Assembly: GCA_043813605.1 (NCBI GenBank)
Contig: JBDRKX010000047.1
Location: 53,539 to 117,538 of the forward strand
Source of the DNA: Elusimicrobiota bacterium
GTDB taxonomy: Bacteria > CG03 > SLGR01 > JBDRKX01
Length of the DNA: 64,000 bases
Direction of reading: 5' to 3'
This document shows, in pieces, positions 39,301 to 64,000 of this stretch (position 1 is its first letter; every line of letters starts with the position of its first letter). The translations under genes and the position numbers were made by a program. The notes beneath the pieces were generated by a model. That model saw nothing but the letters and a program-made list of their open reading frames with translations, ran no database searches and was not told where the DNA came from.

Positions 39301-42300
39301 TCGAGGTTTGTCCATATCTCCGCCCTGATATCCGCAGGATCTATATCACCGCTGACAACAACAGCAGCGTAAACATTCATCTTTTTTAGGGCATTGGTAT
39401 ATATTTTGCTACCGAGGTCTGGCTCAGCCCAGCCGGCGTTCACTATCTCAGCAGGCGGCGCGCGCGCCGGCGGTAAAACCTTGAACGGGTCTGAAGATTC
39501 AACTCCCATCTCCGATGCGAGCTTCCTTACTTCGGCATAAGCCCTGAGTATCTCGCTCACTCCCCACGCCTGTGCGTCGCACCCGCGCGGAGTATGCGGC
39601 GCATCACCGTCCATTATCTCGGATATGCTGCCAACGCCCGCTTCCCTCAGCTGCTTCTTAACAGGTTCAAGGTACCCCAGCGCTCTGCTCACAGCCTGCG
39701 CGGAATTATTGTTCGCTTTCAGGTAGGCCAGGATAAACTGGCCGTAGGGCCAGGTCCACGCGGTACCGTTATGATAAGCGGGTTTACGCTGTGTATCCTC
39801 ATCTCCCTCGTACCGTCCGCTGTAGGGATCGAACGGGTCTTTGAGGTGCGCTATCCCGCGCAGCGGCACATTGATCTTTTCGTCGGCGAGGCTCCTGAGG
39901 GCGCCGGGTATCACAAGTTTTGAAGCAACGGTATCCATCACCTTCCTGGCCTTGCCGGCACTAAGCATACCGTAGAGCACCGCCGTTACCTGGTTGGAGC
40001 GTATTGAACCATCCGGTATCCCGTCGTAGGCGCCCTGACCGGGCCTCGCGAGGATGCAGTCATTGAGGTAGCCTCTCCTGTTCCAGAAAAGCTCGTTGAA
40101 ACTCTTTTCTATCTTACCTGCCAGAGATGGATCGGCGATACCGAGGGAGGACAGGTATTCCACAGCATTATGCCAGAGAGCCTGTATCTCCACGGGATAC
40201 CCTTCCCTGGGCGTTCCTGCTGGAAAGTTCGTGTCCATCCATGTGAAGTGCGACGGTGAGAATACAAGGCCGGATTCGGTATCCATAACGATTCCGTTCG
40301 GAGTTCCTATCCTGTAATTCGTGTATATTGATTTCAATATGTCCCTGAGCGTCCTGCCCTCGACTACCTCCAAATCCACTATACTCTTGTCCCCCGTAGT
40401 CTCTATATACTGCTTTACTGCCTCTATGAACCACAGCGGCGCATCAGAAGTGTCCCTGTCGGAGGCGTCTTTACCCCTGATTATATTCGGGAGCGTCCCC
40501 TTGTCTTCGAATATGGCGAACTGGATGAGTATATCCCTGACCTCTTCAGTCCTGCCGGCGCTCAGCATCCCGAGCGCGACTATCAATGTGTCGCGGCCCC
40601 AGTCGAGGAACCACGGGTAACCGGCTATTACTGTCTTGTGACTATCCCTGTCAACAATGAACTTATCTAACGAAAGCGCCATTATCCGGGCGAAAGGATC
40701 TTCCTGTAACCTTTCAGGCAATTTTTTTATTACCTTCTTCTGTTCTTCCAGCTCTTTGTTGAACAAGCCCTCTATATTCTCATCTTCGTATAAATATTCC
40801 CTGCCTTTCGGTTCCTCAGTAGAAGCAACCCAGCTTACAGTTTCCCCTTCAGTCAGAATCATTTCAAAATATCCGGGACTCAAAGCATCAGACTTTGTTT
40901 CCATTCCCCTAACTCCTTCTATCGAGTGTTCAATATTATAATGCCACTGAGGATCCTTATGATATTTCCCGCGACCGGAGATAATAGTTATCCCTTTGAA
41001 TGGATACCAGTCACCCGTATTAAACCACAACCCATCCAATCCTTTTTTTAATAAATCCCCCTCTATCCTGCCTGTCTTATCAAACCACAGTCCGTCTTTT
41101 CCTTTGGTTACATTATGAAAATCTCTCCATTCCAAATGATGCCGGACATTTAATTTAACACTGCCTTCACATTTCAGTAAATGGTACCGCGCAATTACTG
41201 TGTTCTCTCCCTTTACAAGCTGAAGAGTTTTTTCGATAAGAATTCCTTCTACTTCATACTTCCATGTCGGAAGCGGATATGCTTCAAAACTAACCATGTT
41301 TTCAGCATCAAGCGGATAAGACACCCCATTGATAACAACATTTTCATAAGACCCTTTCACCAGAACCTTTCTGTCCTCTGGAACATCTGGATTTATATTG
41401 GCTGCTAAAAGAGCATCATACTTGGAATAGTATTTACCGGGTTGTATAGCCGTTCTTAGCATTGCACCTTTTCCATTTGCAAGTGTTATTGTTCTTTCCG
41501 CTCCGAACTCTCCTTTTGATAATACAAGGTCTTTTTCACTTATTTTCTGTTTATCAATTCTTATTGCGTCTTCAGCAAACTCGAATAGTTTTTGCTGAAT
41601 AGGATTATCTTTTACGGCTTCGTGGTAGGCTTCGTAGGAAGGATATGTTTTGCTTACTACTACTTCTTTATACTCCCCGATCTCATGTTCAACAAGACTC
41701 TTGAGGAGTTCATCTGTTTCCGGCGGGCTCCTTCCGGCGAGGCCTTCTAAGAATTTTGCATGGACAAGAAGTGTCACCTCTTTTGTAACCTCGTTCACTT
41801 CCAGTGTTGCAAGCGACCAGACGTCTTCTGTTATCAGATCAGGGTTAGCGCTTACTTCTACGGATGGTGTATACCCTGCCATGATATGGTTTAACATGTT
41901 TTCAAGCTTTTCAGTATATTCTGTTTCATCATAAGGCAGTTCTTTTCGTTTTATTATCTTCTGCCGGTAGATGTCTATTAACGCTTTAGAGACATCTACT
42001 GCTGATCTAACGGGGAGTGTAACAGGAGTCAAAAGCAGTTCCACCTCCTTACCCAGAGAAATGATCTTTTTTTCTTCCGCAACACCAACGAGCTCTTTTT
42101 GCAATTCACGCGCTTCTTCGGCTTTTTCCAAATCACTGATCCATTGTTCTATGTCTTTCAGTTCATCTTCGACAAATGTTATTTTCACAGGTTTCCTATA
42201 TCTGCCGAAAAGCGTGTCCGGCTGTTGATCCGCTTTTTCATAATCGACAATACCCTGACTGTCTAAAAGGAATTTCTTCAGGCCCGATCTGTACTCCAGA

Positions 42301-45300
42301 TCCTTAAGATACCTGTCATGCGCTGCAGTATCTTGTTCAGGCTCTTCATCGAGGAACTGCATACCTATATCCAGGAAGAAGATCACTCCGTCAATCTTCA
42401 ATCCTGATTCACCGGCATGCCGGGCAGCACTTTTTTCAAGAACCCGCCAGTTATCATCTTCAGTGTATGTCCTCATCTTGTATTCCACTTTATCTTCGCG
42501 GACTTCCGCTATCTCGATCTTCTGACGGCTGGATTTACATTCCACTATAAACACTTTGCCGGTTTTCTTGTGTCTTACTACCATGTCGAGTTCAGTAAGA
42601 TATTCCCCGTTCTTATACGCGTCCCGGCCCGCTTCCAGTATTTCAAAACCTGCATCACTGAAAAGTTTTATAGCATCAAGTTCGAGCTTTAAGCCCACAT
42701 ACCTTGAATAAAGAGTACCTGTTATTATCTCGGTGAGCCGTTTGTGTTCATTAAATTCATGCACGAGGTCTATCCACGGTTTTTGAGAATATTCAAGCAT
42801 ATCCGTTTCTATATCTTCGCTATACCTGATCTCTATAACATCATCCAGCCGGGCCTTATTATTCTCAACATATTCCCTGAATTCACTTATTCCCCGGGTA
42901 TCTATGACTATTATGGCTTTATCGAATTGACCTATTGTCTTTGGTACCTTTCCGCCTTTCCCGTAGTTCTCGTTCAGATCGTCCATAAGACCGGCCAGTC
43001 TTTTTATGCCTTCATTGACAATAGACTCATGCTGCTGTTCTTCTGTAGCTGTTTTGTCCGGAGGATGATAGAATACCTGGTGCGTGCTGACCAGAGCGCG
43101 TTTTTTTCTGCCTTTATCATCTGGATCACTGTAGTTATCTATCACAGCATCCACCCATTCAAGACTCCAGTCTATACTTTCATTGGATTTGGCTACAGTC
43201 TCACTCTTTACCTGTCCGGTTTTTATGGCAAAAGCGATTGAAAGCAGTTTTGCTCTCAACTCTGCATATGTGTCGTTCATTATATCGACCGTGTCGCTTA
43301 AAGACTCGTCAGTGTATCCGTATTCGTCTTTCAAAAGCTTAACAAGTTTATCAATATCCCTTCTTAACCAGGCGGCTTTTTTCCTCAATACCGTATAGAT
43401 CAGATCACCTTCTGGTTTCAGGATATCCGACGGCTCTTCATAGGAAGCCTCCGGTAACGGTTCTACTCTGCTTAAACCGAATTTTGTATGATAATGGATA
43501 CCTGTCGCAACATTTATTACGGGTCTCTTATGATACCTGAACACAAGGGCTTCTTTACTGCTCAAGACGGACGGCTGAGCGAGGATTATGCCTATAGGCT
43601 GTTTCTGTTTCCTCAGTTCCGGGATAAATTTTACAAGCTCTCTATACTTTGATTTCTTTACTTTTTTCGTAGGATCTTTCATCAGGTACCCGGGGTCTTC
43701 AATATATCTGAGCATGAGTTCCTGTTTATCCAATTGCTGCATCACATCCCGGTAAGTTGCCCTTTCTATCCAGTTTTTGGATTCCACTGAAAAGAGCCTG
43801 CCTTCTTTATCAGCTACAATGCTGTCCAGCTCAGTTAAATATGCTAGACCACCGCTCTTGTTTTTATACTGGTAACTGACAGATAGAGCTTTAATAGTAT
43901 AACCCCGCTCACTTTCCAGATACAGATCAGATAACAGCTCACCGGTTGTTCCCGCTACTTTATGCGGATAGATATAGGTACCCGAAACATCAGTGAGGAG
44001 ATCCCTTAGAGTATTGAGCATTCCAGGTACATTCCGGTAATAAAACAGCAATGCTAACACGGCATCGAAATTACGATACTCTCCGGATCCCATTATCAGC
44101 TGGTACAGAGCAAATCCGGCTTCCTTAAGTCCCTTATTAAACCCGACAGCTTTGGGTTCTATTTTTGTATTTGAATACATATTTTTTATCAGCCCCTCTA
44201 TCATCAGCAGGAATATCTTCTTGTATTCAGCCGGAACTTTTCTATAGTATTCATCAACATATTTCATGAATTTTTTAGGAATATCGGGCTGTACAGCATC
44301 TTTGGCTGATTTCGCGGATCTTATCAGCGCATCCAGTTTCCTGCCTAACGGAGTACCGGAGAGATCGGGCATGATTTCTTCCGATATAAAACTGTCTATA
44401 TATCTTCTAAAACGCGGCTGGAGCGGGTTCTCTATATTATCCGGTTCATATACACCCAGTTCCGTCCATTTAAAGATCGTTCTCTGTATATTCTTATATA
44501 CGTTTCTATGCGCTTCAAGGTCTGTTTCCGGGTATGTCGCTGAAAAGGCCTCGTGGAAAAGTATCTCGTCAAACAATTCCATAAACTCGGCTCTTCTTAT
44601 AAAATTGCGGCCTATAACTATACTATCATCGAGGGCATAAGCAAGCAGGTAATCGTTTTTGCCTTTTATTACAGGATTAAAAGCAACTATTTTGTCCTGT
44701 TCGTAATAATCCAGCAATGTTCTATGTGCAGGCAAAACATTGAACAATATTGTTTTCAGGATTGTTGATTTTTCTTCAGGAAGGATGGCAATAAGTGATT
44801 GGGTGGTTTCATTTTTCGGATCGATCAGTTCTTCGATCAGTCTGATAGCCTGTTCATCAAGTTTCCCGCGCGCAAAATAGGATTCAAGTTTATCCAGCAC
44901 ATAGAATGCATTATCCGACTGTTCTGCAGGCACATCTCCCAGTAGTGCGAACACTGCATCCAGGGTCTTCTTTTCGAAATTCTTTATACTGCTGTAAATA
45001 AAAGCTTTTTCAGTCTCATTGAAAGAAGAAGTTTTCTGAAGGGCGGCACTGTCGCGCGAAGAGCCATCCCCTATCGCACCTTTAACACCGATAATTCCAG
45101 CCTTTACCGTTTCGGCCTTTTTGCGGCGCGCTGCTTCGCGGCTCACAGACATAAGCTCTTCGGCAGTAACTCCTTTAGGCAATCTTTTCAAATCTTTTTC
45201 GATCGTACTTTTTATGAGAGGAAAGTACTTATGTGAAGTTATGAAATGGTCTGAAGCGATAAAGCCTTCTGTATGCACATAGACATATGGAAGGTCTTCG

Positions 45301-48300
45301 AATGAGAGAGGCCGTCTGACAGCCCGCTTTATCATTGCGAGATCCGTGCTTGGTACTGACTGACAAAGGAGTATTTCTACACGGTCAGTCCGGTTCATGT
45401 CTTTCAGTTCGGGAACGTATTTTAGCCACGCTTTGTAAGGACCACTGTGGTTTTCGAGTTTCGTGAGTATTCTGTCATAGCGCTTCATCTGTTTAATAGT
45501 TGCTCTGGTATCTAGTGAATAGCGGTTGTTCTTCGCTTCGGCCGCAAAAACCTTTCCATCTTTAACGAGCATCATATCCATCTCTCCGGCCATGATATTC
45601 TTAACATATTCCAGGCTGAATGCTCTCAGTTCGTATCCTTTCTCTTCAAGGTATGCCGCGGTCTGAAGTTCCCCGGTCAGACCGGAAATGTGTGTATAGT
45701 ATGCTTCTGTAAACCGGAATCTTCTTGAATGGCCAAGGCCGAGCAGTACATTCTCAAGACCCGGTACTTCACGGAAATGGTATAACATCGCTACTATTGC
45801 ATCAATATCTTTTGCATTTTCGTCCGCCATTATGTTTTTTAGATGATGCGAAACGATAGGCAGCCTGTTTTCAAAACGGAATGGCGGCGCCCTTTCGGAA
45901 GTTACACTGTAAAAATCACGGTTATTTATTATGCCGTTTATTATAGCTCTAAATGCTGTTTTATACTGCTCCGGTATAGCATCAAAGTCCTGCTCTACGC
46001 TTTTCCAGTATTCATATTTAGCAGGTATTTCACTGAAAGAAGAGCCCCTGAGTTCATTTATTATCCTGGAAAATCTTTTCTCGAAAGGCACAACAGTCGA
46101 CATGCTTCCAGTGACTCTTACATCTACATAGTAGCGGAGAGCGTCTTTCAGCGGATTCTCTTTTCCGAAGATCAGCCTCTGTATGCCTTCATAAACCGAT
46201 CTGTGAGTCTTGTAATCATGTTCACCGAACAATGCAGAATACCCTTCATGAAAAAGTATTTCGTCGAAATATTCCCTGAATTCCGTAAATTCGGCATCAA
46301 AAAAATCCTGTGCCAATACGATCCTGTCACCGGCAACATAAGCCAGTAGATAGTCTTCACGGTTGTTGATAAGGGATTGAACTTTTTCTATTTTTCCGTT
46401 TTCAAAATACTCAAGAAGTGTCTTATGGACGGGTATTGCTTTATATAACAGGTTTTCCAGGTTTCCTTTGCGCTTTTGGGGCAGTTTTGACAGTGTGTTT
46501 TTTATTATAAAGTTATTGGGATCGGTCAGTTCATTGAAAAACCCGAGCATATCTTCGTCCAGGTCACTGCGGGCAAAATATTCTGTTAATAATTCCAACG
46601 TATAATCCGTAAACTTTTTATGCTTCTTTTCAGCTGCTTCAAGTTCCACAAAAACAAGTTCCTGAAGTTGTTTACCCAATTCGGCTATTTTGTCTTCTAT
46701 TAAGACTTTATCCTGCGTTTCCAGCCGGTTTGTCCGCTGGTATTCTGCCATTTTAAGGGCTTTTCCCTTGCCTATCGCTCCCCGGAGTCCTGTAACAGCC
46801 TCTATCGCAGGTAAAGTCACCAGATTCCTGTATGACACCTCTTCTGCAGGCACCTCCCGCAGTTCTTGAGTAACACTCTTCCTGATATTGTCAAAAACCC
46901 TGAGTTGAGCCATAAACACCAACATAAGATCCGAACCCTGAAGAAATTCCGCAATTTCAAACTGCTTTTTCTGGACATTCATACCGTGCATCAGATGCAG
47001 TTTCGCTACTTCTTCCGCATGTTTCTGAGGATAACCGTATCGCGTAAAATTGTCTATTTCTCTTCTTGTAACTGCCCAGTCTTTATAGTGCATCTGACCG
47101 AGAAACTGTATCTGTTCTTTGCTAAGATTGAATTTTTTATTTAATTCCATATCCATTCCGGCTTCAAGCAGTTCGTGAATGAGTATTTCCGGCATAGCGG
47201 GATTCTCGGAATCGAACCTCATCTCTATAGCCGGTCTCTTTTGCCACAGATATATGTTCTCTTCAGCCCATGTCTTTTTTCCTTTTTCAAGGCCGTCTTT
47301 AAACTCAATACTTATGTCAAAAGCGCTGATGATCTCCTTAAGTTCGTCAAACCTGTATGCCCTGTCTATAGCATCTTTCAGCTGGGGCAGCATTGCCCGA
47401 TCCATTCTGCGGATATGAAGATCTATTCCTCTGTATCCAATTTTTCTTTTATATAGATTCTTTACCAGTGATATACCGGCCGCCAGCGGAGCTATAGCCG
47501 AAAGGACCCAGGTGACAAAATATGCCGGCAACTCATCCAGCCCGGCAAACAGGCCGCCAAGCATATATTCTCTCATGCCTGACGGTTTTAATCCGGCTTT
47601 TTCCGCCATTACCGTAGGCTGAAACCGGCTCACATGTACTCTCTCGTGGAGGAGACTGGCCATAATATGTATCCCGGATAACACACTGGTCAACACTGAT
47701 CCTGCAGCAATGATATGCCCTACATTCAAATATAGCGTACCGTCTATTATGCCTGCAACGGCATAGTTTCCGCTTAAAGATACAAATTCTTCTGTAGACA
47801 TCAAACGGTAATCATCCTTAAAAAACCTCTTGATCAGTTTAAGCAGGGACGGATCCAGCAAAGCCTCAAGTTCGACAGTTGTATCTCCGGATTTAAAATA
47901 TCCTTTTTCAAAAAGTTTGACCATATCCCCTGTTTCGGGTTCAACTGCGTATATTCTTTCAATCATATTTTTCAGGTATTCTGTACTGCCATATTTTCCG
48001 GCACGCACTGTAGCTATAAGGAACAATCCGAAAAACGAAGCAAGAGAGACGATGGATACGAGAGGCATTCCGAAAAGGAGCATATCAGCACCCAGAAGGA
48101 GAGACCATGAAAGCGCCGCACTCATGAATGCAATGGGAGTATATACTACCTGGCCCGCGATTATACCATGTCTGTTAAGAACTATGTCCCATAACTTATC
48201 TACTTTTTTAAAATCCCCAACAGACATGTTCTTAAAATGATGGCCATATATCAAGTCACTGTCCTCGTGTTCCAGTATAAGCCGGAACGCTTCGCGGTTA

Positions 48301-51300
48301 CTCCGTGAATATACATAATCAAGAAGGTTTGTGTGCACATATATCGAGTCCGTACCTGAATGACCAAGTACTCTTCCTTCTGCAAACTCATCACCGCTTG
48401 AGAGAAGAAGGACCAGCCTACGGCTGCTAAGTGTCTCTGATTCCGATTCTACTGACAGTTCTAGAAAAAGTTTCAGTTTTTCTTTGAGTTTATCAGGGCC
48501 TTTACGCAGGATATATAACTCCAGCTCTCTTTCAGCAAGTCTGCGGGCATCTTCATCCTTAAAATAGAACGACTCCGTAAGATTTGCGGCTGTTTTCGCA
48601 TAATCATCGCTGAACATATGATCGATATCTGACGACAGGATACCGGGTATAAGCGCAATCGCCCTGCCAGAAGTTATTGCGTCCAGTACTGCCCCGTCAA
48701 CATCTTCCTGTATTACGCCTTTTTTCATAAGGTTCTTTTCTGTACCCTGTGCCAACTGTCTCTGCTTGAAGAGTTCCACCCGATTCAAAGCCTTTCTGAT
48801 ACTGCTCCCCGCGCCGACGCCTATTTTCCTCTCTTTTCTCATAGACTCTTTCAGTCCTTTTAAACGGCTCGTAAGTATCTTGCGTATATCTCTGAGTTCC
48901 GGATGTGTTATCAATTCTTTATCAGCCAGTACCGATTCGATCTTTTGTACAAGTATTTCCGCTTTCCTGTCCCTATAAGTGATCTTATCAAGGAACCCTG
49001 TCGTTGCTTCGCCCGGACGCATATTCCTTGTCACACTCAGGAACCGGTTTATTACTTCCCCGTCCGGAGTATGTCCTGACCATAACCATTCTCCCCTAAG
49101 ATCAGTCACATCCAGGTAAGGCATGAATTTGCCCAGATAACGCTGATACATCTGGAAAGCTTTCATAAAGTCCTTTGTCCCTGTTTCCATAATACCGTCA
49201 TACCCCACAACATAGAATTCTCCTTTGATCTGGAGTAAAAGAGCCGGATGAAGCGTGTTCTCTGACCCGAGTTCGGTGTCCGCTGACCTGCGGACTTTTA
49301 TGATATATCCCTCGACATCAGGTATGACATCTACTATATCCGCAATAAAATCGAGCATATGGTAATACAGGGCCATATACCTGGGATTCAGTGAAGTAAT
49401 ATCGTCTATAGCCCACTGTATATACCTTTCCAGATTTTCTTTTCTGTACTGTCCCAGATTCTCATACCATAAGTTAAACTCTTCCTCTGATCTCAATTGG
49501 GCTATTTCATCAAGTATTTTCTGTATCTCCTGGTCGGCATAATGTGCGCCCTTTGGTAAAAGAGCAAGAAATTCACGGGTAAATATCCTGTCTTTGAAAA
49601 GGTTATAAATATCCTTATATACGCCTTCGTGTTTCTTATAATGGTCTATTAGCTTCATTGCAAAATTAACATACGGCGCTATATCTTCGCCATGTGCATC
49701 AAGGAATATTGCCTTCCAGTCATCTGAGAGTATCTCATCAATAATATCATTGAGCTGCAGATAAGCCTCAAGGAGCCGGCGCTGTTCATCGCTAAGACTT
49801 TCGAGCCAGCCCTGGAAATCGAAGGACATATCCGCTCCCAGCGTTCCGGATATCTGTTCTATGATATCCGGAACCAGAGCCAGTATATCTGATATATCCG
49901 CATCTGGTAGAACTCCACTTGCTTCGTCAGCCATATCCTGCATTCCGTTCTGAAGATATACAGCAAGCCACATTGCCTGACTACCGGTCATGTTATCTTT
50001 TACAAAACTTATAAGTTCTTCCTTTGAACTGATGTCAAGCGCCCCTATATCCGTATCCGCCTTTATACTGTCAAATACGCTGCCCATATGACCGGCAAAT
50101 CCGGATATAACTCTATCATGATCAAACTTAAACCCTTTAAATTTGTTTAATAAATAGTCAACAAGCCATTTGGCATGTTCTTCACCAAGTTCTTTTGCCC
50201 AGTCTTTAAATTCATCCAATGATAACCTGTTGATCTTGTCTTCTATATCGTTTATAAATCTTTCCCGGTCAGCAGGGCTCAGCCATACTTCTTCAGGTTC
50301 TTCTTTGGCATAACTCATCCTCGGCCTTTCTACACGAGTCGCGACTTCCCGCATCGGTTTTTTTGCGGGAAATGAAAACCTTATCTGAAAACCTATCCTG
50401 TGCTCCCTGTCCGCGTCCGCAGCCTGTGGATATACTTTTTCGATACTGCTTCCAAAAAGCGTCGTTTCAATATTAGTAGACATATATCTGGCAAGTCCTC
50501 TTATTCCTCCGAGGACTTCAGTCTCGTCGGCAAACATCGGGTGCTCGCTGTCACGCAGCCTGTATTCAGCAAGAAGACCCAGTTTATCAAATCCGGGTAT
50601 AAAAGAGTCCCCCATAATACCGCCCTCAAGCCTGAGCTCGTCATATACGGGAGTATCTTCATATTCTATCTTTGTCGAAAGATCATAAGCATAAGCCTTA
50701 CCTTCGTAACCGAACCCTAATGTCCTGCTCTCCGGGAAGAGTTCAGTATCCTCCAGAGGATCAAAATCTATAAGTTCCAGGACATTACTGATAAACAGTC
50801 TTTCAGTTTCAACTGCCCAGAGTTTGAGAGTATCATCAGTAGTAGGCCTGTATACAAACATAATACCCTTTTCAAGATTGGCATATCCCGAGTGAAATCC
50901 TAAAAGTTGTGTATCTCCTGAATGGTAAGCGAAACTGTTTACAGCCGCTCCTACTGCCAGCGAAAAATTTCTCCAGTCTAGCGGAATACCGGTTTTTAAA
51001 GAGCCGCTCAACACATTAAGCTCTTCCTGTTCAAACGGACTTTTCAGATTAAGGTCTATATGAGAAGCTCCCAGATCAAAATCAAAATTTAAATAATGAA
51101 ATATACTGCCGTCAAAACTGACTTCCACCATACCGTACGGACTTTCCAGTATATCGCTTTCTCCCTCAGGCCCGGCAAGACCGCCTATTCTGAAAATAAT
51201 ATCGCCTTCCTCAAGATAAAATACATTTCTACCTAAAATATTAAGATTGCGCACACTTAAAGTAGGATCGAGATAAGCGTTCATCCCGTAAGGGCCAAGA

Positions 51301-54300
51301 TAGAATTCCGAACCTATATCGAATTCCGGGAAAGGGATATCCAGTCTGGCATCTATGTTAAAACCACCGGAAGCGAATGGAGAACCAACAGGCCATAATA
51401 CCATTGCCGTTATTATTATTATGCTCAGGAACCTCCTCACAGCCGGCATTATCTTTTTTGTAAATATCCATTTCAGTACCCGAAGGTTTTCAGGTATTTG
51501 TTTGGCTTCCCGGGCAAGCACCTTTTTCCAGAATCTGCTGACTATCCTGAAATCCTCAGGGCTCAGGTTTTCTATATGCCTGCCGTAGATTATGTCGTTA
51601 TCTTCATGTTCCGATATCAACCGGAGAGCGGTAATATCATCTTCTGTTTGGACAGCTATCAGAGCATTGAAATGATAATGGATCGAATTTGTGGTTTTAC
51701 CGCCATGGCCAAGGACTTTTCCTTTTGCGAAATGGCCTTTGGGATTCAAATGAACAACGAGCGTACGCTGTTGGAGCGTTTCCTGTGAAGTCTTTCTGTC
51801 TTCTCCTCTTAAAAGTCTGACCTTGTTCTTAAGTTTACTGGCAAGTACTGTGTAGAAGGGTTTCCTTACGGTTCCTATAAGGACCTTGAGCCGGTCCCTC
51901 AATATATTTATGTCCGAAGTCTCCATCCTTGCCAAGTGCCGTTTGAGTTCCTGCATGGACCTGATCCTGGCCCTGTCGTCCTGATCAAATCCTTTTGTCA
52001 GGTTATACGCCAGCATCTTTGGATCAGCAAACCATCTATCTATATCTTTCGCCTTTATGCCCGCAGGAATAGCTACTGCCCAGCCGTACTTAACATTGTT
52101 CCGTATATGTTTTTCGAGCCATTTAAGTTTTACTCCCTTTTTCATAAGGTTCTTGCCGGTACCGCCTTCCTCAGCTTTCTCGAGCTTTATCTTCTCTATT
52201 TCAGCGGCATCTCTTTTTACTGTTATCCTCTCATTTGCCCATCGAAGAGCTTCTGCCCAGAATCTCTGAGATTTACTGCCATTATAGAGCCCTATATGCC
52301 CGGCGTTAATTATTCTTCGGTAAAGGTTTTCCGGTGGTGTGCTCACTTTTTCCGCCATAGCAAGACTCTGTCCCTGCCGGTTCTGCATAAATTCAAATAT
52401 TCCCCTGAGCTGATCTTTGCCTGATGTTTTAATAAACGGATCATCCGATGAAAGAAACTCATCAAATGCAATAGTGAACATCCTGTCTTCAACGACAGCT
52501 ATCTTGCCGGGCTCCCTGTTAACATTGCCTTCACCGTCATCAGAGATGAGTTTATTGCGTTTTAGAAAATCCCATGTAGTATCTGCTATCTCTGCCTTAT
52601 TTACTGTCGCAGGCGGTGTTACATCGTCTTTTGTGCCTTCGAACATAATGACCGGACATTTTATCCTGGAAAGGTCTACCAGTTTCATCTCATGACCTAT
52701 TTGTATCTCCATCTCGCCTTTATAGAGCTGGTTACCCTTGAATATCTTGTCAATACATTCCAGGTACCAGAGTGACAGGTTGTTAGTTGTATAGAACCAT
52801 TTGATAAAATGTTCCGCCCGGGCAACATATTTCTCGTCATCGATATTATCTACCAGGTTCTGCCAGAAATCGATCTTCTTTGATTTACCTCCGTCAGGAC
52901 CCATGTTAAGGAATCCTTCAAGCTGGCTCTCGCCATCATAGATATTCTCACGGCCGAACCCGTGTACCAGCCAGTTAAAAAAATCTTCCGGAGCTTCTTT
53001 TGATACCCTCGTTATATCGTTATCTCCGAGTGTAGCGTGAAGCGGAGTGCCGGCAATATACAAGGCTTCGACTTTTTCCGGATATAATGCGGCTACTATT
53101 GCCGCTACCCAGCCTCCCTGACAGAGACCCGTTAACTGAACTTTACCGCCAACAGCGTCTATTGACTCGACTACATTGTGTACCATGTCGGTAATCAGCT
53201 GGATATCGTCCGGAGTCGCGCTCTTCCAGTCTATAGAATATGTAGGCTGGCCTTCGTTCTGGAATGTCTGAACAATACTCTTACCGTCAGCATCATCTGC
53301 TATTGTAGAGCGATGACCGGAATTCGGCGGTACTATCAGCATCGGGATCCGGCTCATATCTACACTGTGGTCTTCTGATACGGTGAAATCCCTCAGCATG
53401 AAACTGGATTTATCTATTATTACTTCGTTATCCGTAAACCATTCGGGCTCCTTAAATTCCACCCTATTAAGAAACTCAAGAGCTTTTTTTACTTTACGGA
53501 AATAATCGTTATACGGTGCCCAGAACCCTACCCATGGTTCATATACCGACTGGCGCCATAACCTTTGCAGATCTTTCGATTCTTTGGTCCAGGGAATAAA
53601 GTATTCTACAAAAGGAAATCTGGAAAAGAACCTGCCGAGATTCCTGCGGCCGGCTTTATACATATCCTCATTTTCTTTGCGAAGACGGGCAGCTTCAACA
53701 GCTTTTTCTTCATCTGTCAGCTTGATGCCCGCCTCGACTTTGGCCCAGAGCGGTCTAACCAGGGTATCAAACAGGTCTTGCCGGATATCCTTTTCGTGAT
53801 GGCCTCTTATAATATCACCGTCTTCATGTTCGAGTATAAGGGAAAGCGTGGTCTTTTCATATTCCGTTTCAACCGCATCGAGCATGTTTATGTGCAGATA
53901 TATGGATTCCCGGCCGGCGCCGCCGTGGCCGAGTATACGCCCTTCCGAGAAATGGTTTCCTTCAGAAAGCAGAACTACAAGCCTGCGGTTTTTAAGAGTA
54001 TCCTGTTCAGTCTTCTGTCTTGAATGAAGAAGCGTCCGCAACCGGTCTTTCAAATGCTCGATGTCAGAACGCGCCAGGTACTCCGTCAGAGCTTCTTCTG
54101 CCCTCTTACGCGCCCAGTCAAATTCATAGTCCATTGAATCAAGCAGGTTCCGGGCTGTTTTGTTCAAATCGTCCGCAAAGAGCGATTCTATGTCTGTCGC
54201 TGTAAGTCTTGCAGAAAGGCTTATTGCAAGTCCTCTGGTTATACTGTCTTCTATTATCTTATCTGCTTCTTCCGCAGTAACACCGGATTTCATCAGGTTC

Positions 54301-57300
54301 TTGCCGGTACCCAATGCTTTTGAGATCTCTGTCTTTTCTTTTTCTATGACTTCAGGAATTTTGCGAGGAACCTTAACAGGAATTTTACGAGGGATTTCAG
54401 GGGAAACAGCTCCTGCTGCGCGGAGAGCGAGGTTTTTTAGTACATCTTTGAATCCGGATATTATCTCTACAGGTATGTTAATAACACCTGTCGCAACAGA
54501 GTCAGGATTCATCAGTTTTGCGTTACGGATCAAAACCTGATCTTTATGAACAGGGGTATTTGTAAGGAGGTACCCGTTAGTTTTTATTCCTGCCGCATTG
54601 AGAAGAGTCTGTACACTCCTGATACTCTTACCGTCATCAGTCACATAGTCATCCAGGTGCCCCTGTCCGCAGAAGACAGCGATTCTTGCCGAAGGATCCT
54701 TATTGTGAAGTTTCTTTATCTCCCTGGCAAAATACCTGTTACGGCCGTTAGTGATTAACCTTTCTCTTATTCTGGGTATTGCAGCAATAGCATCCGTATC
54801 AAAGAAATGGTTTAATCCGGGTATCATCTTCTCAACTATTTTCCAGAAAAGCATAAGCGGCATATCCATATTTACTATTTTTATACCGGCGGCGCTTGCC
54901 GCTTCATATATCAATCGATAGAATTCAGGGCCGGATTCCCATATTCTCTGCTCACTGAAACCATGTCCCTCAAAGCAGAGGTACTTAACTCCTGATTCAT
55001 TTAAATCCTCCATAATACTCATCAGGTACATCGGGTGAGTCATGTTCTTATGATAGTCGCCGAATATCACTACGCGGGCATCATCTATAAGTTTTTTTAC
55101 ATCAGCGCTCTCTATTTCGGTATTCCTGTAGAAATCCGCCGCTTCAGGATCGGCACCTTTAAAGAGTTTTTCAAAGAGCAATACCCAGTTAACCCTCTCA
55201 CTTGCCTGCACCATATCATAGAATCCCCGGAAACTGCCGGATAAGAGATTCTCTTTCTCTGTTGTTGAAAGACCTGCTAACTTTTGTGTCAGTTTACCGA
55301 AAAAGATCAGTCGGGAAAGCCGAAGCGCTGAATTGGAACTCCTGTAATCATATATTGACCCGCTCCAGATATCCGTTATCTTTTTTATATCTTCTGTTTT
55401 TAACGAAGGCAGCCTGTCTATTATCTCCTGAAGAGAAGGGTCCAGTTCAGCCAGTTCTTTAAGGGAATCATTGATTATCCTGTAATCACCGGCAGGATTT
55501 ATAGCTGTCTCGACCATATCAGAGATGACTTTTACAGGTATTGTCACCGGACCAACCGTATCTATCAGCCTGTCTTTGATAACAGGCAGTATCCTGTCAG
55601 CCGATATCTCTTCTTTTTCAATACCCGGTATCTCTTCTTGTGGAACGATATCAGCTTTAATAGCTTTTACGATGATCATACCAATGCCTGTTGCTGTCCC
55701 GTCAAGCACACTCTTGAAAAAGTCACTATCAATAAACTGATCGAGAGCCGTCACATCACCTCTCTGTCTCTGTTCGATATTTACATTATTCAGGAATCCG
55801 GAATCCCGCGATTTCCTCACGACAAACGGTATAACAGGATTCTTTATGGCACGGAATTCTGCCTTCAGTTTGCCTTCCCCGGCAGATTTCTCAAGTAACG
55901 CGTTCACTACATCCGTTATCCTTCCTTTCTGTTTCCCCGGTATCCCCCTGAACTTAGGATTGATCATGATCCTGTCAATTATAAGCATATCAGGATCATC
56001 AACCAGGTTCACGCCGCCTATATCGATATTTTCCGCATTGTATATCCTGTGATTATAAAGCCCGGCCGCCATAGGGACGAACCTGAGACCGTAAGTCTCG
56101 ACTATAAATCCTTTCTCAGATAATTTAACTATCTTTTCAGGATATAATCCCTCTTCTTTTTTTATAATTTCCTGCAGCTCAAACAACGGAATAGAGTCAA
56201 TATGTTTCTTTTTGAGGTGCTCCTTGAACCCTTCCGGCGTCCCGTCAGGTTCAATACCATAATAATTGTATCTTTCCGTCACATAATCTATCAGCAATTT
56301 TAAAAATAGAGTTTTTCTCGCAAAACCTTCAGGCAGTTCATCTTCCTGGGCTTTCATTATGACTGACTTGTGTATGACAATGACATTTTTATCATCTATT
56401 CTTGCTATTTCTGCCAATCCCAAAGACTCTTCTTCCTTGAAGATCTCAGTCACAAGTTCTTTTTTACTGATCTTTACTTCAAAATCGGTCAGTTCAAAGA
56501 ACATCGACATAAACAGATGCAGCCCTTCAGTACCCAGCTCTCCGGTACTCATGAGATCATCCATATCGTCAAAAAGAGAGCTCGTGGTCTTACCTGCCGT
56601 AACAGGTATAGAAATAGAAGCTACTGCTTCTTCATGATGTTCAAGAAATTTGTCGATAAACAGGGAGATATTGTTTATATCGGTCCTTTTCACTCCAGCA
56701 GATTCTATCGTATTGTAAAAATCTTTAAGGATAACCGGATGCTCTGCCAGCGGCCGGCTCATCAGTTCCGTCATGATATAGATCATATCTTCTTCGACAG
56801 GATATTTCTCGACAAGCTCGATTTGAGCAGTAGTAAACGCTACCAGCTGTTCTAATCCGAGGTTGAGAGCAATAAATTCGACGATTTTTAAGTCATTACG
56901 GTCAATAAGGTTTTTCCTGAAAAGTATGTTAAGTATATCTATGATCCGCTCAAAACCGGGAGCAGTAAAAGTACCCGGCATATCATCCGGATAAGACTCA
57001 TATAAACCTTTTTTTATTATTTCGTGAATGATCTTTAGATCTTTGTCCTGGATATAGTTTTCTCTTGCAAGATTGTTAAGTATAAGAAACGTGCGGTAAT
57101 CTTTTATAAACAATGCGTATATAGAGTTCTTTTTTTGCCTTTCTATGACATAATCCATCATAAGTGTTCCATTACCCTCAAAATCTCTGCCTCTTATCAT
57201 CTCATAGGTCATCTCTGTATCAGAATCAAGGTTTTTAAGGTTCTGCATGATAAATGAGACTTTTTCTTTGAGTTCATTACCCGTATAACCACTGTCAGCG

Positions 57301-60300
57301 GTCATTTTCCTTATATCATCTTCTTTCAATTCCTTAAACTCAATGATCGATTTTTTTATTTCTTCTATACTCAAATCTTTATATAATTTGCTCGGCCTGT
57401 TCTCCCATGTGTTGAACAGGAATTCATTAAAACCCATCTGCGTGTCAAAAGCCACATCATGATCGAATCCGACAGGTACACCGTCAACCATAACCATATT
57501 GCTGTCATGCGGATCCCATTTGCGTATCAGGACATTGAATACAAACATAGCCGCTGCCGCTTTGTCGTAATCATTGTGTACGAATTCTCTGTATCCGGCG
57601 CCAACTGTCCTCGTAAGATAGAATCCTTCTTCACTGCTCCCTATCCCGAATTGTCTCAGATTTTCTGCTTCATCATTACTTATCGTCCTTATCTCCGTCG
57701 TATTTACCCTGCCTTTTCCGATAAGGTAAGCGAGCATCTCTCTCCTGTAGTCGTTCTTGTTCTTGTGATATCCATGGCCGCCGGACTTGAGCTTTTTTAC
57801 TATAAAGTTTTTATTGCCTTCATTTACCTGAAACTCCCAGGTGCCGTCCTCGATCGGATTTTTGCCGCCATAGACATATCTCGGTTCAGGTTTCTCTGCC
57901 GGTACCTCTTCTTTAAACTCTTTATCTATCTTCTTCAGGATTTCTGCCGCCGCCTGACTGATATTCCCGTTTTCTTCATAGAACCCCCGCAGATACTGTC
58001 TAATATAAGCCTGCTCTTCAGGATTTACGCTGTCGTGATACTGGATCATCCTGTCCGTTTCGCCGGACACAAGTATTCCGGCTAATTCCTCTTTATACGG
58101 ATTCGCTATTGTCTCTTTCAAACCCCGGGCATCAGAGAAAAGCAGGGCGATTCTAGGGTCACCTTTTAAAATAAGTTTAGACAGACTGTCGCCTATATCC
58201 TGAGAATAGATCTTTTTATTAAGTTTTATATCTATACTGCCGAGAGTGCTGTTCATGCCGAATATGACTGCCGGGGTACCCATTTCAGCCATCTGAGACG
58301 CGTCCACATGGTCAGAAGCATGAATGATCTCTGTTACCCGCCTGATACCGGGAATTACATATCCCGGTATGCGGTCAGGATGGTGATGGTAGAATACCGC
58401 AAGTTTTATGGAAGCAGGGATCTTTATTCCTTCTGTTTCCAGCTCTTTTTCGATGATAGCTACCGAATCGAGCGCATGGCCCAGAACATCTGTACCGCTT
58501 TCGTATTCCCTGTAATTCTTTCTGGTCTTTGATATATCATGTATCAAGGCAGCTATCTCAAGCGCAGTCTTCTCCTGTCCGGTGATACCCAGTTCTTCTG
58601 ATATTATTGAAGAGTATTCCCTCACACGCTCGATATGGCGATGCCTGTGTTCTATACTCCCGAAAAGCGCGCGGATCTTTTCGGATATTACGGAGACATC
58701 TCCGTTTATGACAAACCGTTCATTTTCAGGTGTATTATTATATTCGGCTATCACTTCGGCGATCCTGGGTATTATATCCGGATTTATTCCGCTCGATGTC
58801 ATCATCCTGGATATCTGCGCGATCTCTTCTTTTATCGGATCAGCTATCTCTGCCGGCTCCACTACTTCAACCGGCGGTTGTTCAACAGTTTCCGGTTCTT
58901 TTTCAGTTTTTTCAGGTAAAATCTGTGGGCGCTGTATTACACGGGCAGGTCTTTGCAGAAACTGTCTGTAAAGAAAATAGCTCATCCCTATACCGCCTAT
59001 CACTCCGGTTGCAACAGCGGAAACTGCCATAGCTGAAGCCGCCAGAGCCCATACAAGTACTGCTGAAACAGCTACTATACCGAGCGCGATCAGGACATTC
59101 CTGTATTTTGCAGTAAATCCCGGTTTTCTTCTTTTCTTTGTAAGATCACGGATATCCGCCGGGCGGGCGGAGACAGGTGTCTCTTCTATTTCACCTTTTT
59201 CTATCTGTACAAGAAGTTTTTTCAACCGTTCTGATTCCGTATATGTTAATCCTTTCTCACCCATACCTATCTCGGCATTATAGCCCTGGAAGAGTCTGAC
59301 AGTCTGGTCGCCCGACTCTATCAGATCACTCAGTATTTCTTCTATCCGCGTGGTTTCAGCAGATATTTCTGAACCTAGAGCAGGAAACATATCAGAATTC
59401 CTCATAATAGCCGTAACCGCATACGGATTGTATATATACAGTCCGTCGGATGTTTCCAGCAGTTTAATATCGTTGCCTGTACTCTCTATCAGGGTTTTTA
59501 ATGCTGTTTTCTCTGAAGCGGTTATCTCCTTCGAAACATCTACCCTGCTGAATGGCCTGGTTTCAGGCGAAATCACCGTTATCATGGCATCTGGATTGAG
59601 GACAATTTGTGTTTCCTGGTCTTTCTGTGCATTTTGCAGTTTGGTGAATGCTTCTCCGGCATCGTGCATTATTTTCTCTTCAAGGAGCCCTTCTGCTACC
59701 CGGACAGGTATTATCTCTACATCATTTTCACCTTTGACACCTACCGTAAACACCTCATTACCCAGGCTCAACGGTAAAATGGTTTTCCCGTTATAATCGA
59801 CAAATTCGTTCAGATGGAAGATGAATTTATCTTTTTCTCCTGCAATCGCCCTGTTTTTAGTGCGCATTTTATTGAACCTGTTCCACCATTTGAACAGAAA
59901 ATCGTCAACCTTATCGGCAAATCCGGCACTCTCATACCCGGATTCCTTCAGTTCCTGTCTTATAAAAGCGCCCAAACCCCTGACAACAACGCGTTTTTTG
60001 AACCATTCCATCGGCTGGAACGAAGAAACTGCAAGTTCTCTCATAAAAGCTTCTTCAAAACTCAGTTGCTCACCACCCCTGAGAAGCGCATAATACCTGC
60101 TCCGGTCCTCTTCGGTATATGCGGTTACCCTCGGTTTGATCACGGTATATGAAATCCCCTCTTTTTTAAGCTGTTCGCTGATACCGTATGAATGAAAACC
60201 ACCGGCTATCATGGCCAGTATCTTATCCTTGTCGTCAGAACTGCTCACAAATTTCTCTACAAAAGTCTCATCCCTTTTGCATGCCGTATCGTAAAAGACC

Positions 60301-61574: not shown

Positions 61575-61591
61575 TTCTGTTTAAAATACAT

Positions 61592-62280: not shown

Positions 62281-64000
62281 TTACGTCGCTTCTACCATTG
62301 ACCTGATATTGTTAAGGTTTTCAAAGAGTCTGCTTTCCTGCTTGCGACTTATTATATTATTAACATATACGAACATATTTTTCAATACCTCAAGCATTGA
62401 ATCGTCTCTCTGTTCGCCCAGAGCATACGCCGCAATTTTATCTAACCTGCCCTGTGTGGTTATCATTGCCAGGGATGTGGGAGTCACAGGTATTCCGACG
62501 ACAGAATTACCCAGTCTCCTTATGAGGTCTACAAACCGTTCCATTCTCTCTTTTTTCTCCTTGATAGGTTTCTTTATTTCTTTGGGAGCGCTTGTTCCCC
62601 TTGCCGTGGGATCGACTACCCTCTTCTGGCCCAGGAAGAACTGCTCATTGAGTTTCTGGACTTTTTCATAAACTATTTCCATAGTTTCAGGCCTGAATCC
62701 TTTAAGCCTGTCCGTTACATGCCATTTCAACATAGTATCATCTCCAAGAAACCCTGCTGAATAGGCTTCAAACCATAGCGTGTAAGGCGCTATTTCATCC
62801 TTATTTATTCCATATGTTGCCATTTTGGACTCAAATATATCGTCTGAAAATTTACCGTTTTCATCTTCACTCATCCTAAACAGCGCATGCAGTTTAATTG
62901 CCTTAATAGCCATAGATGGATTAGCCTCATAGAGGCCTGTTAGTCTACGAACTGTCATGCTGTCTATAACAAGCCGACCCTCATCAGCCAAATAATAGCT
63001 CTTTGAACCGGTCTCTATGCTGTTCAGGCCTGTATTCATCTCCATCAGCGCATTTTTAAGATTGTCAAAATAAAGCTGTTTGTTCCATAGCGGTTTTACC
63101 TTGTTATCAAATGTCTTTACAGGTATATCTTCGGCATGACTGCCTCTTATCAGATCGCCGTTCTCATGCTTGAGGATATGCCTCAAAGCTGTCTTTTCGG
63201 CGTATGAAGTCACGTTAAACAGCGTGTTTATGTGCATATATATCGAATTCGAGCCCGCATGGCTCAACACCCTGCCGGCTGAGAATTCATCATTATGAGT
63301 CAACAGGACGACAAGACGCCTGTTCTGGAGCGTCGGTTGAGCCAGCATATTAACAGGAATATTAAAGAATCCAATCAGGCCGTTCAATATCCTGCTGATA
63401 AATACGCTGACCGGTGATCTTCTGGCTGTTCCGTCAAGCAGTTTGAGCATCGCTTTAAGATGATCCTTATCGGCAGTTTTCAGGTATCCGGCAAGTTCTT
63501 CTCTTGCCGCTTCTCTGGCGCTGTAACTGTCGTATTCAAAAGCGTTCAATAGGTTGCCAGCTATCTGATTACGGTCACCCCTGAACATATTATCTATCTG
63601 ATCCTTCTTAAGTCCCGGACGGAGCCCTATGGAAAGACCGGATTCTATTCCCTGGCTGATATCCGTGTTTACGGTACCTACAGCAACACCGGGTTTCATG
63701 AGGTTTTTGTCATCTACCATCAGTGAAAGGTATTTTATAAGATCCTGAGCTTTTGTTGTCAGGTCTGGCTGTTCTATATCAGCCAGATTGATCTCAAGCG
63801 CTCTCTGCATGAGTACCTGTACCAGTTCAGGTACCGAGAAACCACGCATATCTTCCTGGCTCACGGATATGACTCCTGCTCTCTGTACCGGTCTTTCCTC
63901 AAAAACAAAGGATGAGTTCTCCAACACTGACTTAATATCGATTATACTGCCGAATTCTTCCGGCACTTCCATATTATTTGCTATAAACACCCTGTCTATA
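62281..64000 (-). CDS. C-terminal part (at least 570 aa) of a large protein, open at the 5' end at the window edge. It carries the same KNLMKxGV...LVVLL...GRVLxHxG...SIYxHxN...LxHExxD module found three times in the giant ORF
   Basis: Track ORF 62281..63990. The frame stays open through 63991-64000 (codons IDR...). TAA stop at 62283-62281. Motif KNLMKPGV at about 63715-63690 and RRLVVLLTHNDEFSAGRVLSHAGSNSIYMHIN downstream of it. Confidence 0.8.
   Translation of the reverse strand, partial: IDRVFIANNMEVPEEFGSIIDIKSVLENSSFVFEERPVQRAGVISVSQEDMRGFSVPELVQVLMQRALEINLADIEQPDLTTKAQDLIKYLSLMVDDKNLMKPGVAVGTVNTDISQGIESGLSIGLRPGLKKDQIDNMFRGDRNQIAGNLLNAFEYDSYSAREAAREELAGYLKTADKDHLKAMLKLLDGTARRSPVSVFISRILNGLIGFFNIPVNMLAQPTLQNRRLVVLLTHNDEFSAGRVLSHAGSNSIYMHINTLFNVTSYAEKTALRHILKHENGDLIRGSHAEDIPVKTFDNKVKPLWNKQLYFDNLKNALMEMNTGLNSIETGSKSYYLADEGRLVIDSMTVRRLTGLYEANPSMAIKAIKLHALFRMSEDENGKFSDDIFESKMATYGINKDEIAPYTLWFEAYSAGFLGDDTMLKWHVTDRLKGFRPETMEIVYEKVQKLNEQFFLGQKRVVDPTARGTSAPKEIKKPIKEKKERMERFVDLIRRLGNSVVGIPVTPTSLAMITTQGRLDKIAAYALGEQRDDSMLEVLKNMFVYVNNIISRKQESRLFENLNNIRSMVEAT

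Follow-up and report, generated by a model that had tools for sequence, protein, structure and literature searches.

A repeated HExxD module in bacterial giant proteins is probably a built-in, latent metalloprotease

We detected a protein module that occurs three times in a giant ORF and once in the neighbouring upstream ORF of an Elusimicrobiota contig (JBDRKX010000047.1; the 64,000-nucleotide stretch analysed is referred to as the window). It is probably a built-in, latent metalloprotease of giant membrane-associated multi-enzyme proteins in Elusimicrobiota, Omnitrophota and Auribacter. In our reading, the module represents a new, divergent zincin family, related to the smallest known zinc proteases, in which the His at the second metal ligand has been replaced by Asp. 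Bacterial giant proteins (10,000 to >100,000 aa) may work as single chains or be cut up, a question not yet settled, and according to the preprint that names giant genes their cleavage points are unknown (bioRxiv 10.1101/2023.11.21.568195). C39 and S8 peptidase domains have been proposed to cleave the giant proteins of Omnitrophota (bioRxiv 10.1101/2023.11.21.568195). The module adds a third candidate, unannotated and protease-like, that is repeated in giants of at least three phyla.

Module copies in the window

A single minus-strand frame without stops (3..61580; 20,526 codons) makes up the giant ORF, which fills the window and exits at its start. Counted from the ATG at 61574 (3..61574), it encodes a multi-enzyme protein of >20,524 aa, with Pfam matches to HD, DUF3141 alpha/beta-hydrolase, GDE_N/GDE_C, GH77, LOG, Bac_transf, Glucosamine_iso, Metallophos, Rce1-like, GH94 and HAD. 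The N-terminus (MKLINSIYIKF...) shares 49% identity with the start of the equivalent gene on an Elusimicrobiota MAG contig. The upstream ORF (62281..63999, minus strand; 572 codons in the window, its N-terminus cut by the window end) comprises one module and a conserved C-terminal region of unknown function. Similarity to its homologue P0004 (Elusimicrobiota), which has a GNAT domain in addition, covers the module as well as the C-terminal 230 aa, and gene order is the same around the two. An exact look-up of the small ORF between the giant and upstream ORFs returned no record.

All four modules lie on the minus strand. Copy 1 (53682..54365; giant aa 2406-2633) is followed by the DUF3141 alpha/beta-hydrolase domain (aa 2727-2992). 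Copy 2 (51435..52223; aa 3120-3382; HMM E 7e-121; BLAST against copy 1 E 2.5e-37) is 50-51% identical to a fragment from another metagenome (P0003), and copy 3 spans 48111..48803 (aa 4260-4490; HMM E 3.5e-107; BLAST against copy 1 E 8e-33). The upstream copy (63040..63753; aa 83-320 of the frame read from 63999; HMM E 2e-115) matches the giant copies with BLAST E 1.5e-39 to 7e-27. Run over both ORFs at E<10, an HMM built from the four copies found exactly these four, each at E<=1e-102, and pairwise BLASTP among them gave E 1e-24 to 1e-39 at 35-41% identity; the range over the copies is given more broadly as 33-43%. The initial annotation had placed all four within about 10 nt of where we find them. 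Its estimate of about 180 aa fits the core of copy 1 from the KNL motif to a conserved Trp (about 186 aa), while the full HMM envelopes are longer (228-263 aa). An insertion of about 24 aa is present in copy 2, where it precedes the catalytic core, and in the upstream copy. The giant protein holds only these three modules, all in the first 4,500 of its >20,500 residues.

Codon alignment of the copies shows just 46-51% nucleotide identity, which makes them old paralogues, and the collapse of assembly artefacts that had been named as a risk does not arise. The near-identical string reported for the KNL site, TTCAT[A/C]AGGTTCTTGCCGGTACC, does exist (22/23 identical), although at 52141-52163 and 54289-54311, 3-5 nt from the positions first given.

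Family distribution and architecture

An exhaustive HMMER profile search of 1.84 billion (1.84e9) protein representatives identified 45 carriers, 16 of them at E<=1e-30, and the family is thus very rare. With the window's own two ORFs included there are 65 module instances in 47 proteins, often two to four per protein. Most carriers are fragments of 1,000-6,600 aa, and the named ones come from MAGs of Elusimicrobiota, Omnitrophota and Auribacter. The initial annotation's picture of a family of giant proteins is borne out, as the carriers are few and very large and often hold several copies each. The module's position varies between related giant genes, which fits the domain shuffling also suggested there. 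Modules often lie immediately before intracellular-type enzyme or winged-helix domains; in relatives, the enzyme domain directly following is GNAT in P0004, APH in P0001 and PHP in P0005.

Two other searches gave nothing. A word-indexed protein search with the 4-copy and 43-sequence alignments returned no hits, which we take as a limit of the method rather than as absence. Scanning genome, metagenome and viral contig collections with the 4-copy alignment yielded no relatives; the patterns were specific to the window copies, and the result therefore indicates only that the source contig and its close relatives are absent from those collections.

The module was first described as belonging to no recognised family, and it is indeed a discrete unit without Pfam or NCBIfam match. 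At E<=1, no peptidase model of either database matched any of the 43 family members or any of the four copies in the window, and none of these sequences belongs to Peptidase_M48 (PF01435) or Peptidase_M56 (PF05569). The Pfam M48/M56 models do match homologues of selecase, the archaeal minigluzincin MJ1213 (PDB 4QHF-4QHJ).

Fold and active-site motif

AF2 was uninformative when given the four window copies alone (pLDDT 51.7). The predicted model described here has a zincin fold, with a backing helix, a three-stranded sheet, an active-site helix and a C-terminal helix in the order of minigluzincins. Foldseek searches of PDB and BFVD gave no significant match, and the top entries with names were metallopeptidases. 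Selecase was the sole PDB match of a core-only profile (E 0.0027-0.016) and was also found with the full-module profile (E 0.0067); hhalign against a selecase-family alignment gave P 4.6e-5 and a probability of 68%. A match to BurrH in the PDB profile search (E 8e-4) was rejected as a sum of weak repeat-protein matches with no single significant stretch, and it disappeared with the core-only profile.

Each selecase alignment places the H-E-x-x-D...G.H of the module on H69-E70-x-x-H73...G77..H80, in which H69, H73 and H80 bind the zinc of selecase and E70 is its catalytic Glu. The candidate third ligand, His2595 of copy 1 (53/63 family copies), aligns with selecase His80 and is of the selecase type rather than the gluzincin Glu type. 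In copy 1 the putative metal site and general base are contained in HEDGDIIRGHH (53796..53828, minus strand; H2585, E2586, D2589, H2595), with equivalents on the same strand at 51576-51608 (copy 2), 48237-48269 (copy 3) and 63136-63168 (upstream ORF). The early suspicion of a metal-binding motif is thus supported by the aligned zinc ligands and the zincin-fold model, but the element is HExxDxxxGxH, not EHED. Compared with minigluzincins, the active-site helix lacks HExxH and keeps its first His and Glu. The proviso that the module might prove to be a well-known fold holds for the fold itself, which is that of zincins, but not at the level of family and motif; a literature search for HExxD metalloproteases retrieved nothing relevant.

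The predicted second strand of the sheet carries LGHGG (53919..53933 in copy 1; equivalents at 51699-51713 in copy 2, 48354-48368 in copy 3 and 63253-63267 in the upstream ORF, all minus strand), whose His (His2552) is nearly invariant in the family (57/63). The order of secondary structures, which matches selecase, suggests that this would be the substrate-binding upper-rim strand.

At its N-terminal end, the module opens with GKNLMK (54288..54305 in copy 1; equivalents at 52140-52157 in copy 2, 48723-48740 in copy 3 and 63694-63711 in the upstream ORF, all minus strand), with a family consensus of (D/G)-K-N-L-x-(K/R). A PSSM scan of the whole giant protein found three such sites, all in modules and none elsewhere (scores 20.6-22.3, against a shuffle maximum of 15.4). 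No short motif other than (D/G)KNLxK recurs, and this one is confined to the N-termini of the modules. The model shows it ordered (pLDDT 93 for block 11-20), with a beta-bridge at Met2430, and the only other isolated bridge, at Ile2549, adjoins the LGH strand, which hints at latency.

Conservation of the putative active site

The first His is present in 54 of 63 aligned instances, and the Glu, Asp and last His are each present in 53. HExxD is found in 53/63 copies, and canonical HExxH only in the most distant member, P0045 (HEDWH). We infer that the module binds metal, based on the selecase alignments and the model. The Glu is kept as strongly as the ligands, which argues for catalysis, and on sequence and model together we lean towards peptidase activity. 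Counting against a protease are the absence of canonical HExxH and of any Pfam or NCBIfam peptidase match.

The same two observations would suit a pseudoprotease, a zincin-derived module that had lost peptidase activity with the change from His to Asp and whose present role in the giants was that of a structural spacer, or else docking, regulation or metal sensing. Conserved interaction surfaces are also suggested by the N-terminal extension (about 90 residues, itself conserved) and by the C-terminal helix with its Trp, and the four to five copies that have lost the catalytic residues and retain the rest show that the module can persist without the motif. We nevertheless consider such a loss unlikely for the family as a whole. 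About 85% of copies retain the general-base Glu along with all three putative ligands, in three phyla and at an overall identity of only 20-40%, a pattern typical of active sites, and zinc sites of the His/Asp/His type support catalysis in LAS and M23 peptidases.

A metal enzyme other than a protease, in which the 2-His-1-Asp site of the zincin-like scaffold would bind Fe or Mn and serve, for example, an HExxH-fold oxygenase or a YbeY-like nuclease, perhaps acting on the sugar or lipid substrates of the neighbouring enzyme domains, has a smaller chance of being correct. Both the best structural match and the only sequence match are genuine peptidases, and the Glu beside the first His, a defining feature of hydrolysis by zincins, is conserved.

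Hydrophobic segments and topology

Hydrophobic helices had been reported after each copy. By Kyte-Doolittle analysis they directly follow only copies 2 and 3, and none follows copy 1 or the upstream copy. The transmembrane-like segment after copy 2 (51375..51431, minus strand; aa 3384-3402) is preceded by a K/R-rich flank, which suggests a cytoplasmic location by the positive-inside rule. The strongest segment after copy 3 lies at 48006..48062 (minus strand; aa 4507-4525), with further ones up to aa 4706. In the family, 50 copies could be assessed, and in 6 of them a hydrophobic segment starts no more than 100 aa downstream; in others it lies just upstream or none is nearby. In three relatives (P0020, P0026 and P0040) the module comes straight after an N-terminus resembling a signal peptide, which implies that these modules are exported.

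Such N-termini would suit an active zincin protease whose targets are foreign and cut in trans, for instance envelope proteins of prey or host or peptidoglycan peptides, rather than its own polypeptide, a role already suggested for predatory Omnitrophota and their giant proteins. The giant-gene preprint links such proteins to cell-wall degradation (bioRxiv 10.1101/2023.11.21.568195). The giant protein also has no KNL-like sites beyond the N-termini of its modules. We find this reading slightly harder to accept than the non-protease enzyme, given the cytoplasmic appearance of the flank between copy 2 and its helix and the intracellular type of many domains that follow modules. The characterised minimal zincins of the clade, moreover, are latent or autoinhibited, as is known for proabylysin, projannalysin and selecase.

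A nucleotide-binding or phosphohydrolase module (GHGG as a glycine loop, EHED as an HD-type site), for which the motif resemblance pointed out in the initial annotation is the only argument, or a chance or assembly-derived repeat, is hardly credible, as there is no conserved glycine loop and only L-x-H of LGHGG is kept family-wide, the residue after HE varies (D/N/Y/L/H/A), the module has no HD or P-loop family match and neither H...HD...D nor a P-loop, the fold is that of zincins, and the repeats are highly significant yet 46-51% identical in DNA.

Proposed mechanism and significance

Under the favoured metalloprotease reading, each repeat would be a self-contained cassette of about 200-260 aa in two parts. 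The N-terminal region of about 90 residues, predicted to be mainly helical, opens with (D/G)KNLx(K/R) and resembles nothing known. The second part, about 120 aa long, would be a minimal catalytic core of zincin fold and of the selecase, minigluzincin or M48-M56 type, with the predicted order backing helix, three strands, active-site helix, His-bearing loop and C-terminal helix, in which HExxD and then xxRGxH stand in place of HExxH. In copy 1, His2585, Asp2589 and His2595 would hold the metal ion and Glu2586 would activate a water molecule for peptide bond hydrolysis, with the near-invariant His2552 on the neighbouring strand. Limited proteolysis of the carrier polypeptide or its immediate neighbours seems the most plausible activity, and the module's own KNL segment may be a site that it cuts or a block on its activity.

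That the giant protein processes itself is a more tentative proposal, which we hold with considerable doubt. Somewhat more doubtful is its specific form, an autoproteolytic "punctuation" cassette in which the KNL segment would occupy the module's own active-site cleft and be cut in cis or on membrane activation. Such a cut would free the downstream enzyme block from the giant precursor. With just three modules, none of them beyond residue 4,500, and KNL-like sites confined to them, a general system that cuts between every domain is ruled out.

If the punctuation reading is right, the module would be the first defined cleavage device, with its site, for bacterial giant multi-enzyme proteins, and would work with a new HExxD variant of the zincin active site. 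The module extends the zincin repertoire by a natural His-to-Asp swap at the putative second metal ligand. The conserved KNL motif offers a testable cleavage or latency site, and annotation would gain a few hundred residues per "hypothetical" giant. Should the module be an ordinary or inactive zincin relative, it is simply a new domain family.

Comparison with known systems

Selecase, the only sequence-level match in PDB, is the closest known system, and in both a Gly turn precedes the His that serves, or in the module would serve, as third ligand. The module differs in its second ligand, Asp rather than His, and in a loop to the last His that is one residue shorter. Selecase and the other archaeal minigluzincins, proabylysin (4JIU) and projannalysin (4JIX), are stand-alone proteins of about 110 aa, whereas the module has its N-terminal extension and is embedded, more than once, in proteins thousands of residues long. 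Relative to M48 (HtpX, Ste24/ZMPSTE24, BepA) and M56 (BlaR1/MecR1) peptidases, it lacks HExxH, the gluzincin Glu ligand and a Pfam match. The catalytic domains of these membrane proteases abut hydrophobic helices, as do some module copies but not most. Metzincins share the spacing of first and last His (positions 1 and 11) with a Gly turn between, and on sequence inspection the module's L-A/G-H edge strand is reminiscent of MMPs, but the full metzincin set of HExxHxxGxxH, Met-turn and five-stranded sheet is not found in the module.

Built-in processing proteases of very large proteins include the cysteine protease domain of MARTX, the proteases of viral polyproteins and the C39 and S8 domains proposed for Omnitrophota giants. 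The module is like them in being a protease-like domain within a multi-domain giant polypeptide, where it lies several times and beside enzyme domains, a likeness of working principle only. From all of these the module differs in catalytic class and fold, and its copies lie within the first 4,500 residues.

Four copies of the repeat module

The giant ORF on the minus strand carries three copies of a module of about 200-260 aa, delimited by profile at 53682-54365 (copy 1, giant aa 2406-2633), 51435-52223 (copy 2, aa 3120-3382) and 48111-48803 (copy 3, aa 4260-4490). A fourth copy is encoded on the same strand in the upstream ORF (63040-63753, aa 83-320), and a profile of the four copies detected no fifth in the two ORFs with the cut-off relaxed to E<10. 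The motifs quoted in the initial annotation were found within about 10 nt of the places reported, as was the near-identical 23-mer at the KNLMK site (52141-52163 and 54289-54311). A hydrophobic helix was proposed to follow every copy, but comes directly after just two of them, copies 2 and 3.

The copies match each other in pairwise BLASTP with E-values of 1e-24 to 1e-39 and 35-41% identity, and each is about as close to copies from other organisms as to its neighbours. Because of this, and because the codon-aligned DNA identity is only 46-51%, the four are, judging from their sequences, old paralogues; the same DNA identity rules out the assembly artefact considered in the initial annotation.

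Fold and active-site motif

AlphaFold2 failed when given the four window copies only (pLDDT 51.7), and with 43 family sequences it returned a confident model of aa 2418-2625 of copy 1 (pLDDT 92.9, pTM 0.89). The structures matching this model are the minigluzincins proabylysin (4JIU, score 7.0), selecase (4QHF, 6.9) and projannalysin (4JIX, 6.2), the HtpX domain (3CQB, 6.4), a zincin-like protein (3E11, 6.0), ZMPSTE24 (5.2) and BepA (5.1). In a PDB profile search, selecase was retrieved with the full-module profile (E 0.0067) and was the sole protein match of the core-only profile (E 0.0027); profile-profile comparison with the selecase-family alignment gave P 4.6e-5 and a probability of 68%. 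In all these alignments, His2585, Glu2586, Asp2589, Gly2593 and His2595 align to selecase His69, Glu70, His73, Gly77 and His80; in selecase, His69, His73 and His80 coordinate the zinc and Glu70 acts as the general base. Structural elements also follow one another in the model as they do in selecase: backing helix, beta1 (RRLVVLL), beta2 (ILGH), beta3 (SIYLH), short helix, active-site helix, His loop and C-terminal helix. A zincin fold is highly probable for the module, and the structural matches, the selecase alignments and the common element order identify its C-terminal ~120 residues as a catalytic core of zincin fold and minigluzincin/M48-M56 type. The N-terminal ~90 residues, modelled as the KNL motif, one strand and four helices, matched nothing in the PDB profile search or the structural comparison.

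Conserved family-wide (copy 1 numbering) are the N-terminal (D/G)KNLx(K/R), Gly2450, Phe2544, Leu2550-x-His2552, Tyr2561-x-His2563, His2585-Glu2586-x-x-Asp2589-x-x-Arg-Gly-x-His2595, Asp2598 and Trp2612. The motifs noticed in the window therefore recur across the family in reduced form, with only part of the quoted residues kept (LGHGG becomes Leu2550-x-His2552). Asp takes the place of the second His ligand in 53 of 63 copies, whereas the most distant member retains HEDWH.

A rare and mobile family

The module has no Pfam or NCBIfam model. A profile search run exhaustively on 1.84 billion cluster representatives yielded 45 module proteins at E<=1e-3 (16 at E<=1e-30), most of them 1,000-6,660 aa long and many truncated by contig ends. 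With the profile iterated and the two ORFs of the window included, the count is 65 module instances in 47 proteins, and a single protein holds at most four. Carriers with a named source come from Elusimicrobiota, Omnitrophota, Candidatus Auribacter fodinae and an unclassified "bacterium" MAG; two fragments come from bins labelled archaeal (Thorarchaeota and Micrarchaeota), labels that we suspect to be binning errors. None of the named family members is annotated as a peptidase.

Partner domains vary. The 3,339-aa P0001 from an Elusimicrobiota MAG contains HEAT repeats, winged-helix arrays and an APH kinase; in its aa 805-2121, three modules alternate with winged-helix domains, including a Penicillinase_R/BlaI-like match (PF03965, E 1e-12), and the last module adjoins the kinase domain. 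A zincin beside a BlaI-type repressor is reminiscent of the BlaR1/BlaI protease-repressor pair. Other partners are GNAT in P0004, PHP in P0005, and methyltransferases and GDE_C in P0007. P0014 is a complete 6,660-aa protein with HD_4, LOG, GH77 and GDE_C domains.

Module positions differ between related giant genes. In P0010 (aa 1-736), a stretch with 54% identity to giant aa 5998-6499 leads into a module that the window protein lacks at this place; likewise, in P0014 (aa 2435-3095) a module directly follows the LOG region, whose counterpart in the window protein, giant aa 9201-9627, is followed by none. These comparisons show that gains or losses of modules have occurred independently of the well-conserved sequence around them; with its positions not conserved, the module acts as a mobile cassette, in agreement with the domain shuffling envisaged in the initial annotation.

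The giant ORF and its neighbourhood

The minus-strand frame from 61580 to 3 is free of stops over 20,526 codons and continues past the window start. Its first ATG, at 61574, opens a protein of more than 20,524 aa beginning MKLINSIYIKFTSWMLVLSFVFVYVF..., with a hydrophobic N-terminus and about 15-20 more hydrophobic segments. The protein contains at least 15 different enzyme domains, GH130 and a YrbL-like kinase among them. Scanning its first 19,400 residues in 5,000-aa chunks, we detected the Pfam domains HD, DUF3141/PHB-depolymerase-type alpha/beta-hydrolase, GDE_N/GDE_C, GH77, LOG, Bac_transf, Glucosamine_iso, Metallophos, Rce1-like, GH94 and HAD. The GC content is 0.52 at 38001-40000 and about 0.43 elsewhere; this stretch encodes giant aa 7194-7860, including the end of GDE_C (glycogen-debranching) and the GH77 4-alpha-glucanotransferase domain. 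The domain content agrees with the "multi-enzyme" class of giant proteins described for Omnitrophota (bioRxiv 10.1101/2023.11.21.568195). Elusimicrobiota, too, have been reported to carry genes for proteins of at least 10,000 aa.

Besides the module, at least five internal repeat families are encoded on the minus strand: pairs at 18381-19328 and 16818-17780, 45402-46481 and 43611-44780, 57162-57827 and 3381-4046, and 36138-36815 and 30726-31394, and a three-copy repeat (23658-24350, 8745-9377 and 4194-4841) corresponding to a YrbL/PhoP-type kinase-like domain (PF10707). One pair consists of ~320-aa units that are 46% identical, and another is separated by 18,000 residues (aa 1252-1473 and 19179-19400).

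The upstream ORF (62281-63999, minus strand, 572 codons, its N-terminus cut off by the window end) and the giant ORF flank a small ORF of 183 aa (61612-62163, minus strand) without a family match. Homologues of the upstream ORF, the small ORF and the giant N-terminus (49% identity) occur in the same order in the Elusimicrobiota MAG contig JBHOUT010000169.1 (GCA_042580625.1), a shared arrangement that supports the ATG at 61574 as the start and makes a related Elusimicrobiota bacterium the most likely source of the window. The small ORF has 37% identity (E 1e-28) to the ORF at the same position there (L001 2442-3041), and this conservation makes it probably a real gene. At its C-terminal end, the upstream ORF has 230 residues (aa 343-572; 62284-62970, minus strand) that match P0004 with 34% identity (E 4e-36) and no known family. 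The first ~520 residues of the giant protein are common to P0014 (24% identity), and aa 406-468 (60177-60365, minus strand) match the Tiki/ChaN superfamily weakly and below threshold (PF04187, E 6e-4), perhaps as a second, unrelated protease-like domain.

Possible activity and processing

The putative general-base Glu and three putative ligands are conserved together in three phyla at an overall identity of only 20-40%, and His/Asp/His zinc sites support catalysis in LAS and M23 peptidases. On both counts an active metal-dependent hydrolase is favoured, a peptidase being the simplest case, and we lean slightly towards an active metallopeptidase. Latency or autoinhibition is found in the characterised members of the minigluzincin-type clade: the protein's own tail blocks proabylysin and projannalysin, and oligomerisation blocks selecase. 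The model shows an ordered KNLMK segment (pLDDT ~93) that makes an isolated beta-bridge at Met2430. A single further bridge of this kind occurs, at Ile2549, directly before the invariant beta2 His, and a beta2-type strand binds substrate in zincins. The two bridges suggest that the cleft is occupied by the module's own N-terminal KNL segment, which would serve as a latency peptide or be cut in cis.

Cleavage there could release the downstream unit, which would fit with modules often directly preceding an enzyme or DNA-binding domain. Self-processing of the giant protein nevertheless seems unlikely. Several observations count against a general processing role: the modules of the window protein number only three and are confined to its first 4,500 residues, KNL-like sites are absent from the rest of it, and a few family copies are catalytically degenerate. 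A further point against such a role is that clues to topology disagree, as modules directly after a signal-peptide-like N-terminus in P0020, P0026 and P0040 point to export, and a K/R-rich flank (51432-51476) before the helix following copy 2 points, by the positive-inside rule, to the cytoplasmic side.

Comparison with known proteases

Whereas the fold is ordinary, the libraries and literature searched contain no description of the family, of its active-site variant or of its context. How giant bacterial proteins are processed is a question explicitly left open by the field (bioRxiv 10.1101/2023.11.21.568195), for which the module offers, as its main value, a concrete and testable proteolytic candidate. 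Selecase, the minigluzincins and the M48/M56 proteases are distant relatives of the module, and it would work like them. Unlike these, it has neither a canonical HExxH nor a match to curated family models, and it combines an N-terminal extension with multiple copies embedded in giant proteins.
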